From the NCBI RefSeq assembly GCF_003018115.1, contig NZ_CP027457.1: 64,000 nucleotides of DNA; one strand, written 5' to 3'. Below are positions 6,001 to 9,000 of the stretch, one piece after another. This DNA is from Escherichia coli. GTDB lineage: Bacteria; Pseudomonadota; Gammaproteobacteria; Enterobacterales; Enterobacteriaceae. Made by a program: the position numbers. Each line of letters begins with the position of its first letter. Positions within the stretch are counted from its first letter, which is position 1.

Positions 6001-9000
6001 AACGAGCAGGGGCTGGCAAACCGCGTCACGCCGGACAGCCTGCCGCCGGTGGAGTGGCTGACGTATGGCAGCGGCTATCTGGCGGGCATGAAGCTGGGCG
6101 GGACGCCGCTGCTGGAGTTCACGCGCGACCGCCTGCACCGTGAGACGGTGCGCAGCTTCGGCAGCAGGGCAGGCAGTAATGCCGCATATGAACTGACCAG
6201 CACATACACCCCCGCAGGCCAGTTACAGAGTCAGCACCTGAACAGCCTGGTATATGACCGTGACTACGGGTGGAATGACAACGGCGACCTGGTGCGCATC
6301 AGCGGCCCGCGACAGACGCGGGAATACGGCTACAGTGCCACGGGCAGGCTGGAGAGCGTGCGCACCCTCGCACCGGACCTGGACATCCGCATCCCGTATG
6401 CCACGGACCCGGCGGGCAACCGGCTGCCGGACCCGGAGCTGCACCCGGACAGTACCCTCACAGTGTGGCCGGATAACCGCATCGCGAAGGATGCGCACTA
6501 TGTTTACCACTACGATGAATACGGCAGACTGACGGAGAAGACGGACCGCATCCCGGCGGGTGTGATACGGACGGACGACGAGCGGACCCATCACTACCAT
6601 TACGACAGCCTGCACCGCCTGGTCCATTACATCCGTATCCAATATGAGGAGCCACTGGTGGAGAGCCGCTACCTCTATGATCCGCTGGGCCGCCGGACGG
6701 GTAAACGGGTGTGGCGGCGGGAGCGTGACCTGACGGGGTGGATGTCGCTGTCGCGTAAACCGGAGATGACATGGTACGGCTGGGACGGAGACCGCCTGAC
6801 GACGGTACAGACAGACACCACGCGAATCCAGACGGTCTACCTGCCGGGGAGCTTCACGCCGCTCATCCGCATCGAAACGGAGAACGGCGAACGGGAGAAA
6901 GCGCAGCGTCGCAGTCTGGCGGAGAAGTTACAGTCGGAAGGGAGTGAGGACGGTCACGGTGTGGTGTTCCCGCCTGAACTGGTGATGATGCTGGACAGGC
7001 TGGAGGGAGAGATACGGGCAGACCGCGTGAGCCGTGAAAGTCGCCAGTGGCTGGCGCAGTGCGGACTGACGGTGGAGCAACTGGCCAGACAGGTGGAGCC
7101 GGAATACACACCGGCGCGAAAAGTTCATCTCTATCACTGCGACCACCGTGGCCTGCCGCTGGCGCTCATCAGCGAAGACGGCAATATAGCGTGGAACGCG
7201 GAGTATGATGAGTGGGGCAACATGCTGAACGAGGAGAACCCGCATCACCTGTATCAGCCATACCGCCTTCCGGGTCAGCAGTACGATGAGGAGTCGGGGC
7301 TGTACTATAACCGGAACCGGTACTATGATCCGTTGCAGGGGAGGTATATCACCCAGGACCCGATAGGGCTGATGGGGGGATGGAACCCTTACCTTTATCC
7401 GTTAAATCCTGTCACAAATACTGACCCTCAGGGGTTAGAAGCGATTCTTCCTGGTCCGTTCCCCTTCCCAATTCCATTGCCAAAAAGTCCTGTACAGCAG
7501 GAAGCAGATGCAAATGCAGCAAAAACATTGACAAAATGGTGGAAAAACTTTGGAGATGCCATTAATAATCCGCCACCTCCTGGTAATTGTTCTAATGATT
7601 ATTATGAACATCTGAAAAATCAAAAAGAAGCTATTTGCAACCAAAAAAGAAAGTGTTACCCAACCGATAGTTGTGAAACTATACTTCAGAAAGGTGTGTA
7701 TGGTCTTGCTTGTGTATCAGCAAGGAATAATATTATGAATCAATGTTTTAATGGAGGTGATTTACGGCATCAGCTTGAAAGAGAAACGGTCAGGGGAACT
7801 ATGATGTCATGTACTACATTGGCTGTAATAAAAGGATGTTTATAAATGGGAAAAGACGAGATCATAGATTATATTCAGAAAACGTTTTCTGAATATCCAG
7901 ATTATTTGAAAAATGGGGTCGTTGATGAAGACAACATTGCATATTGCCATGACGCTATAAACCTTTTTTCTGGAAAGAGTTGGATTGAATTAATGGCCAG
8001 TGATCTTTACCATTCTGAAGATGCTGTCATGTGTCTCACTAAACCAGCATTCTCATATTATATTGCAGCCTATTTAAAACTTTTTATTGAAAATTATTAC
8101 GAAGCTGATGCTTTAGTGGATACTATTTTAAATATGCTCACTCCTCCTGTTAGGAATGGTATCCCCAGCACTACATGGATAGCAAAAAATCTTGATTGCT
8201 TTAGTCGTAATAAAAGGGTGGCTATTTCTTTTACATTCCAATATTTATGTAATGAATATAATGATCCAAATACTGAAAAGGCGTTAAATATATATTGGGG
8301 ACAGTATCTGAATGAATCATTGCTTATTAAAAATGTACAGAACTCTAAAAATAAATGTAAATCACAGTAAGACAGAATCAAGCAGAAATCGTGGGCGTGG
8401 TTCGCACCCTGACGGAGGGTGTAGCGTGTACTAGATCACAGTGAGCGACATCAAAGCTTGGTCACGTTCTGGCATTACGATGAAGCCGACCGCCTGACGC
8501 ACCGTACCGTGAATGATGAAGATGCCGAGTGCTGGCAGTACAACGAACGGGGCTAGCTGACGGAAAAAGACGAGCAGCGCATAGGGAAAGATCATCAGAA
8601 GTTCACTTTTTGTACTAAATAATTCGCATTTTATGTTTAAAAATTGAGATATTCCTCATTACCTGAAGCTGTTTTTATTGCTTATACATGATCAAATACT
8701 CCTTACATAATTAAGGAGAACAAAATGGAACTTAAAAAACTGATGAAACATATTTCTATTATCCCCGATTACAGACAAGCCAGGAAAGTAGAACATAAAT
8801 TGTCAGATATTCTACTGTTGACTATTTGTGCCGTTATTTCTGGTGCAGAAGGCTGGGAAGATATAGAGGATTTTGGGGAAACACATCTCGATTTTTTGAA
8901 GCAATATGGTGATTTTGAAAATGGCATTCCTGTTCACGATACCATTGCCAGAGTTGTATCCTGTATCAGTCCTGCAAAATTTCACGAGTGCTTTATTAAC

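Follow-up and report, generated by a model that had tools for sequence, protein, structure and literature searches.

Layout of the RhsE region

The window, meaning the whole 64,000-nucleotide stretch of DNA that was analysed, contains the RhsE region of an E. coli of the ETEC O169:H41 type. It is 99.8–100% identical to the complete ETEC O169:H41-type genomes F9792, F8111-1SC3, F6326-C1, 2014EL-1345-2, and LR882990. The upstream flank of the locus consists of yncH and a truncated vgrG fused to the N-terminally truncated rhsE′, and the downstream flank consists of pptA, yddH, and nhoA. All coordinates are those of the window unless a label from L004 to L018 is given; these labels denote the sequences compared with it. 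The features of the locus are listed below.

To ~250: end of the rhsE′ toxin tip
286–924: ORF
~966–1116: IS1 fragment, a frameshifted transposase fragment directly upstream of ISEc1 copy 1 (RefSeq annotation of F9792)
1121–2411: ISEc1 (H-rpt) copy 1
2410–3575: orphan tip with immunity ORF
3652–7845: intact rhs gene, 1,397 aa, with an Ntox16 tip
7375–7845, + strand: 3′ end of this rhs gene, the hyperconserved core end and the Ntox16 toxin tip; left part of the laterally shared cassette
7846–8370, + strand: rhsI-type immunity gene, 174 aa, an ORF directly after the rhs stop
8371–8449, + strand: cassette spacer, 79 bp, conserved together with the cassette
8450–8566, + strand: first piece of the core fragment, Rhs core residues ~699–735, two YD repeats
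8554–8556, + strand: in-frame TAG replacing a conserved Trp codon, TGG
8557–8582, + strand: second piece of the core fragment, LTEKDEQRI, core residues ~959–967, joined to the first by an internal deletion
8582–9871, + strand: ISEc1 (H-rpt) copy 2, which truncates the core fragment
9872–10885, + strand: orphan rhs tip and immunity ORF to the right of ISEc1 copy 2 (from translation and annotation)
10917–12206: ISEc1 (H-rpt) copy 3

The 3′ end of the intact rhs gene matches the Pfam families Ntox16 (E 4.7e-12) and RHS (PF03527). The orphan at 9872–10885 comprises the last 33 core codons, starting from PGQQ, a toxin tip that extends to 10486 and an immunity ORF at 10487–10885; its tip matches no Pfam family. 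Two rhs genes thus stand in tandem, the truncated rhsE′ fused to vgrG′ (L004 9317–13140) and, about 3.5 kb further on, the complete gene at 3652–7845, the core of which is 83% identical to that of rhsE′. The complete gene begins 77 bp past the immunity ORF of the first orphan, an unusual place for a full-length rhs.

The ends of ISEc1 were defined by aligning the three copies and read CAGGGAAAG...GCCCTG. All three copies lie in direct orientation, each with an intact 378-aa transposase ORF; that of copy 2, a member of the ISAs1 family, occupies 8725–9861. No target-site duplication was found around any of the three, which implies IS–IS recombination or adjacent deletions throughout the locus. 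Such H-rpt/ISEc1 elements of the ISAs1 family are reportedly known from E. coli Rhs loci through the work of the Hill laboratory in the 1990s. In keeping with this, the core fragment described below abuts an ISEc1 copy inside an Rhs element, and IS copies separate the tips at RhsE. The fragment, in contrast, is not part of the IS, and it is found without ISEc1 in L013 and L015. The junction between ISEc1 copy 2 and the orphan on its right is limited to the same five genomes and therefore provides no independent history.

A divergent core fragment behind the immunity gene

A fragment of an Rhs core lies downstream of the immunity gene, which stops at 8370, and ahead of the left inverted repeat of the second ISEc1 copy (8582), in the place where the sequence-only reading of this DNA had put one. 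Read in the frame of position 8341, 8450–8566 and its tail give QSLVTFWHYDEADRLTHRTVNDEDAECWQYNERG, a stop, and LTEKDEQRI. That reading had reported about 30 codons at about 60% identity to the middle of the core, with an in-frame stop. Both observations hold: by tblastn, 8452–8565 matches residues 699–735 of the adjacent Rhs (3652–7845) with 23 of 37 residues identical (62%, E 6.6e-16), and the stop is the TAG at 8554–8556, where intact cores carry TGG (Trp). The equivalent position of the truncated upstream rhsE′ is matched at 63% amino acid identity. The proposed extent, 8380–8580, is correct only on its right side. Positions ~8450–8582 are derived from core, with homology over ~8444/8450–8566 and a further tail of 16–26 nt, reaching 8582, that originates further along the core. 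Positions 8380–8449, conversely, belong to the spacer and contain no detectable core. The possibility that 8371–8449 is a more diverged piece of core was considered and rejected, since its local alignments to the collinear core DNA were no better than those of shuffled sequences, and no significant core similarity was obtained.

The fragment begins 79 bp past the stop of the immunity gene. The YD-repeat motif occurs in it as WHYDEADRLTHRT and as WQYNERG(stop)LTEK, and the Pfam family RHS_repeat (PF05593) is barely reached, at 22.4 bits against a cut-off of 22 (E 1.6e-4) with the TAG read as Trp. The remaining YD repeats of the adjacent Rhs and of rhsE′ match the fragment at E 1e-4 or worse. 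Because these other repeats score far lower, the match is specific to one position and not compositional, and the same collinear position is shared with the cores of rhsE′, GF43, C. freundii, Buttiauxella, and L013. The PGAP/RefSeq annotation records 8452–8553 as a partial pseudogene, "hypothetical protein". The three-copy alignment, with its unrelated flanks, places the left end of ISEc1 at 8582 and the fragment outside the inverted repeats; an ISEc1 megablast match extending into 8565–8582 was rejected as a chance gapped extension. A search of Rfam with the fragment region returned no RNA family, and a permissive threshold gave noise only.

Interrupted by a TAG, internally deleted, cut off by ISEc1, and only about 44 codons long, the fragment is not a full-length rhs gene, nor is it an orphan rhs-CT/rhsI module, as ISEc1 stands directly at 8582. 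Lacking a start codon, a core end (PxxxxDPxGL), a toxin tip, and an immunity partner, it does nothing now. It is a pseudogene fragment and nonfunctional debris, the relic of an orphan module rather than a module.

The earlier suggestion that the fragment comes from a different Rhs lineage agrees with the nucleotide comparisons. Its identity to the attached core is 79% over 52 nt and 68% over 100 nt, and its identity to rhsE′ is 70–71%, against 91.5% over 117 nt to an orphan on L005 and 91% to the orphan on L013. The closest intact cores reach only about 80%, namely those of C. freundii (L010; 80% over 115 nt) and Buttiauxella brennerae (80.5%); an intact source core more than 95% identical to the fragment was not found. 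Among 5,426 complete E. coli genomes, the fragment is present in five, all of the O169:H41 type; the next best E. coli core in this set is 78.6% identical (GF43, rhsC locus), and most cores are at 72.4%. Among genomes sampled at one per GTDB species, an exact 29-mer across the TAG/TGG site had no match, and the degenerate pattern YDEADRLTHRTV retrieved just three cores, at 78–80% identity; the top hits of these scans were Buttiauxella brennerae (80.5%) and two short contigs (78%), none of them a close intact source. A short-peptide protein search, which is of limited sensitivity and yielded two candidates only, pointed to L005. On this ENA contig, the match was to an 82-aa ORF; the DNA has the same TAG, and the orphan core is longer, continuing undeleted as LTEISHLSGGHRV. 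The yafT gene of L005 is 74% identical to that of E. coli, and the contig is thus not from Escherichia. Whether the core end on the right-hand side of ISEc1 copy 2 shares the lineage of the fragment was also examined, but at 89.5% identity to the window core and 82.7% to L005 it is too conserved for a lineage to be assigned.

Enterobacterial-type Rhs core segments 78% identical in nucleotides to the fragment were also encountered on L007 (BMUD01000166.1, 544 bp), labelled Streptomyces griseoloalbus, and on L008 (JAETOQ010000140.1, 2.7 kb), a scaffold of an Oscillospiraceae MAG. Contamination or mis-binning is the likely explanation.

Collinearity with the cassette and decay of the fragment

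The relationship between the fragment and the genes preceding it is illustrated by the comparison with other enterobacterial loci. Window positions 7375–8582 align with L013 6402–7586 at 88% in a single collinear alignment, which covers the core end, the Ntox16 tip, the immunity gene, the spacer, and the fragment and stops exactly at the ISEc1 boundary. Positions 7300–8460 align with L015 at 84%, and 7300–8354 with C. freundii (L010) at 89%, the C. freundii copy being without spacer and fragment. The homology to L013, L010, and L015, at 88–89%, begins at 7300–7375. Upstream of ~7375, the window core is 70–73% identical to the L010 and L013 cores, compared with 83% to rhsE′. Homologues of the immunity gene (73–99%) adjoin Rhs-CT genes in Citrobacter freundii, Shigella flexneri, and other enterobacterial contigs, and the spacer at 8371–8449 aligns with L013, L014, L015, and L017.

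Since the collinear homology starts at the core end while the core upstream is dissimilar, the tip, immunity gene, spacer, and fragment constitute a laterally shared block with its recombination point at the hyperconserved core end, as in what has been called C-terminal displacement (PMC2935791). L013 belongs to a non-Escherichia enterobacterium, with nadA-pnuC-zitB 75.6% identical to E. coli. The cassette, at 88%, is better conserved than the genomes of its hosts, whose genes reach ~74–76%. On these comparisons, the fragment appears not to have been derived in place from a resident E. coli gene but to have been imported as the tail of the cassette. It would differ from the adjoining core because it is a foreign fragment that the cassette carried in.

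The tail of the fragment continues into RIRDGGSHSH(Y/H)YH in L013 and L017, which places LTEKDE(Q/R)RI at core residue ~959. The internal deletion thus removed the core between residues ~735 and ~959, with the YD repeats GWLTE and GRLTEK at its two ends. The L013 fragment has TGG in place of the stop and a private 19-bp deletion, and it continues as LTEKDERRIRDGGSHSHYYHYDNRHRPAHY for about 230 bp until the nadA flank. The L015 spacer opens into an orphan rhs of 436 aa, which has a YD shell, an RHS domain, and Ntox16 and is followed by its own immunity gene. We examined whether the orphan tip downstream in the window (9872–10885) is that of L015; the two are unrelated. The orphan at 9872–10885 and the fragment are not contiguous in core coordinates.

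The same TAG occurs in L005 and in S. flexneri (L016–L018), and TGG occurs in L013 and L009. The two changes are distributed in conflict with each other: L005 (10143–10259) has the TAG without the internal deletion, whereas L013 (7450–7586) has the deletion with TGG. Consequently, either the TAG arose twice, or it was reverted or converted, or the fragments recombined. A deletion at the same repeat junction, GWLTE/KTD, was also observed in L009 (E. coli GCA_036602385.1, a 244-bp contig), which represents a different core lineage 79% identical in nucleotides to the fragment. This suggests that repeat-to-repeat slippage may recur at this site.

The S. flexneri draft contigs L016–L018 (strains GCA_013998335.1, GCA_014007675.1, and GCA_053041105.1), which are about 811 bp long and end inside ISEc1, are 99.6% identical to window 8025–8582, including the TAG. 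They contain an extra 200 bp before ISEc1: after ...GCGCAT, this segment begins with CCGTGACGG and ends with AACCCGCA, where CAGGGAAAG follows. Translated in another frame, it corresponds to core residues 1141–1198 (67% amino acid identity, E 6e-26), and the left inverted repeat of ISEc1 comes next. Exactly these 200 bp are absent from the window. Judging from the 99.6% identity, the S. flexneri form would be the immediate ancestor of the window form.

The 200-bp loss resembles IS-adjacent and microhomology-mediated deletions in that it ends exactly at the IS terminus and has CGCA(T/C) at both breakpoints. However, the first base of the left inverted repeat of copy 2 (8582) is T, while it is C in copies 1 and 3, in S. 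flexneri, and in E. coli 042. This altered terminal base, together with the lack of a target duplication, fits poorly with a clean transposase-mediated adjacent deletion. The same two features prevent the loss from being assigned to transposase or to illegitimate recombination.

Origin of the fragment and its significance

We propose, with a probability of roughly 85%, that the fragment is an imported and progressively eroded remnant of an orphan core, located at the tail of a mobile cassette and cut short beside ISEc1. It would be the 5′ remnant of an orphan (displaced) rhs core in a horizontally mobile toxin/immunity cassette, the order of which would be core 3′ end, Ntox16 tip, immunity gene, 79-bp spacer, and partial foreign core. 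The cassette presumably recombined onto the resident core of the RhsE locus at the hyperconserved core end (~7375–7390), bringing the spacer and the foreign fragment with it. By that time, the fragment was probably already a pseudogene through the repeat-to-repeat deletion (~735 to ~959) and the change of TGG to TAG. Its immediate ancestor, which S. flexneri appears to have kept, would have been 200 bp longer and would have reached up to an ISEc1 copy. In the window lineage, a deletion up to the exact left terminus of ISEc1 presumably removed these 200 bp, so that about 130 bp remain. Core homology, collinearity with the cassette, the 200-bp difference, the internal deletion, and the stop are seen directly in the sequences, whereas we infer from the alleles compared in which direction the transfer went, in what order the events took place, and how the final deletion came about. 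The sequence-only reading had attributed the fragment to recombination or IS-mediated deletion. Both processes, as cassette recombination and as a deletion adjacent to an IS, seem to have shaped it, and import with the cassette refines that proposal.

Debris such as this fragment is ordinary at rhs loci, where both rhs "gene relics" and dissociated tips that retain part of a core have been documented, as has a circular-intermediate model for how C-terminal tips are displaced (Jackson et al. 2009, PMC2935791). Like those orphan tips, the fragment is a partial core downstream of an intact rhs and its immunity gene, originating from tip displacement or lateral acquisition. In contrast to them, it has only about 130 bp and no core end, toxin tip, or immunity gene. 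Within a locus, dissociated cores are nearly identical to the attached core (Jackson et al. 2009, PMC2935791). The fragment, at 68–79%, is not, which can be explained if it formed part of the incoming cassette and not of the resident gene. An in-frame stop in a retained core, as found here, has also been described for the orphan of Y. pseudotuberculosis IP32953 (Poole et al. 2011, PMC3150448).

Alternatively, the fragment could be a local relic, that is, a resident E. coli rhs or orphan at RhsE, diverged or of another core subfamily, that was destroyed in place by ISEc1 and has no connection with the cassette. The fragment lies directly against ISEc1, the three copies without target duplications indicate IS-driven rearrangement, and the 200-bp deletion beside the IS did happen. 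Nevertheless, no E. coli core in the 5,426 complete genomes exceeds 78.6%, and two contigs from outside Escherichia, which have no ISEc1 at that point, contain the spacer and fragment in the same collinear arrangement with the cassette. We therefore regard a local origin as very improbable. A GC-rich stretch might also resemble the YD motif by chance or composition alone, given the repeats within Rhs cores and the weaker matches that the fragment makes to others of them. This explanation can be practically dismissed: one collinear position is the best in every core tested, with E values from 1e-11 to 1e-40, and the fragment is 91.5% identical to L005 and 99.6% to S. flexneri. The caution, raised at the outset, that the match might be compositional only was thus not borne out.

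It is also conceivable that the spacer and partial core are kept as a functional handle, providing homology for excision and integration via circles or a regulatory signal for the immunity gene. They are retained in at least four contexts (the window, S. flexneri, L013/L014, and L015), and such a junction is predicted by the circular-intermediate model (PMC2935791). However, the identity of the spacer and fragment to L013 (~88%) is not above that of the rest of the cassette. The deletions differ by lineage (19 bp in L013, more in L015, and 200 bp in the window), a stop codon is present, and no RNA family is matched. Moreover, C. freundii has the same tip and immunity gene without spacer or fragment. 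Retention for a function is accordingly very improbable, and the reading of the fragment as an eroded, imported cassette tail is preferred.

If this reading is correct, the fragment serves as a marker that the Ntox16 tip and immunity gene of the ETEC/Shigella rhs were imported en bloc from outside Escherichia. It would also provide a dated series of orphan-rhs decay, comprising repeat-to-repeat deletions, a nonsense mutation, and an IS-adjacent deletion. Furthermore, it would be an exception to the published rule that orphan core fragments match the attached core, an exception that the circular-intermediate model can explain. More tentatively, and with considerable doubt, the spacer and foreign core fragment might preserve the junction of a circular rhs tip cassette that was passed from one enterobacterial genus to another. 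Were this so, the L015, L013, S. flexneri, and window alleles would be direct sequence evidence for C-terminal displacement through circular intermediates. Displacement could then import core fragments of another clade, against the rule that dissociated cores match the attached one.

A separate observation concerns the positions at which ISEc1 meets Rhs cores. Three independent junctions between ISEc1 and a core are located close to the core 3′ end, all within about 20 codons of one another: at core residue ~1189 to the right of copy 1 (2412), at ~1207 to the right of copy 2 (9872), and at ~1198 on the left side of the S. flexneri copy (L017 757). The clustering may mean that ISEc1 prefers the conserved core end as a target, or the junctions could be descendants of one old insertion.
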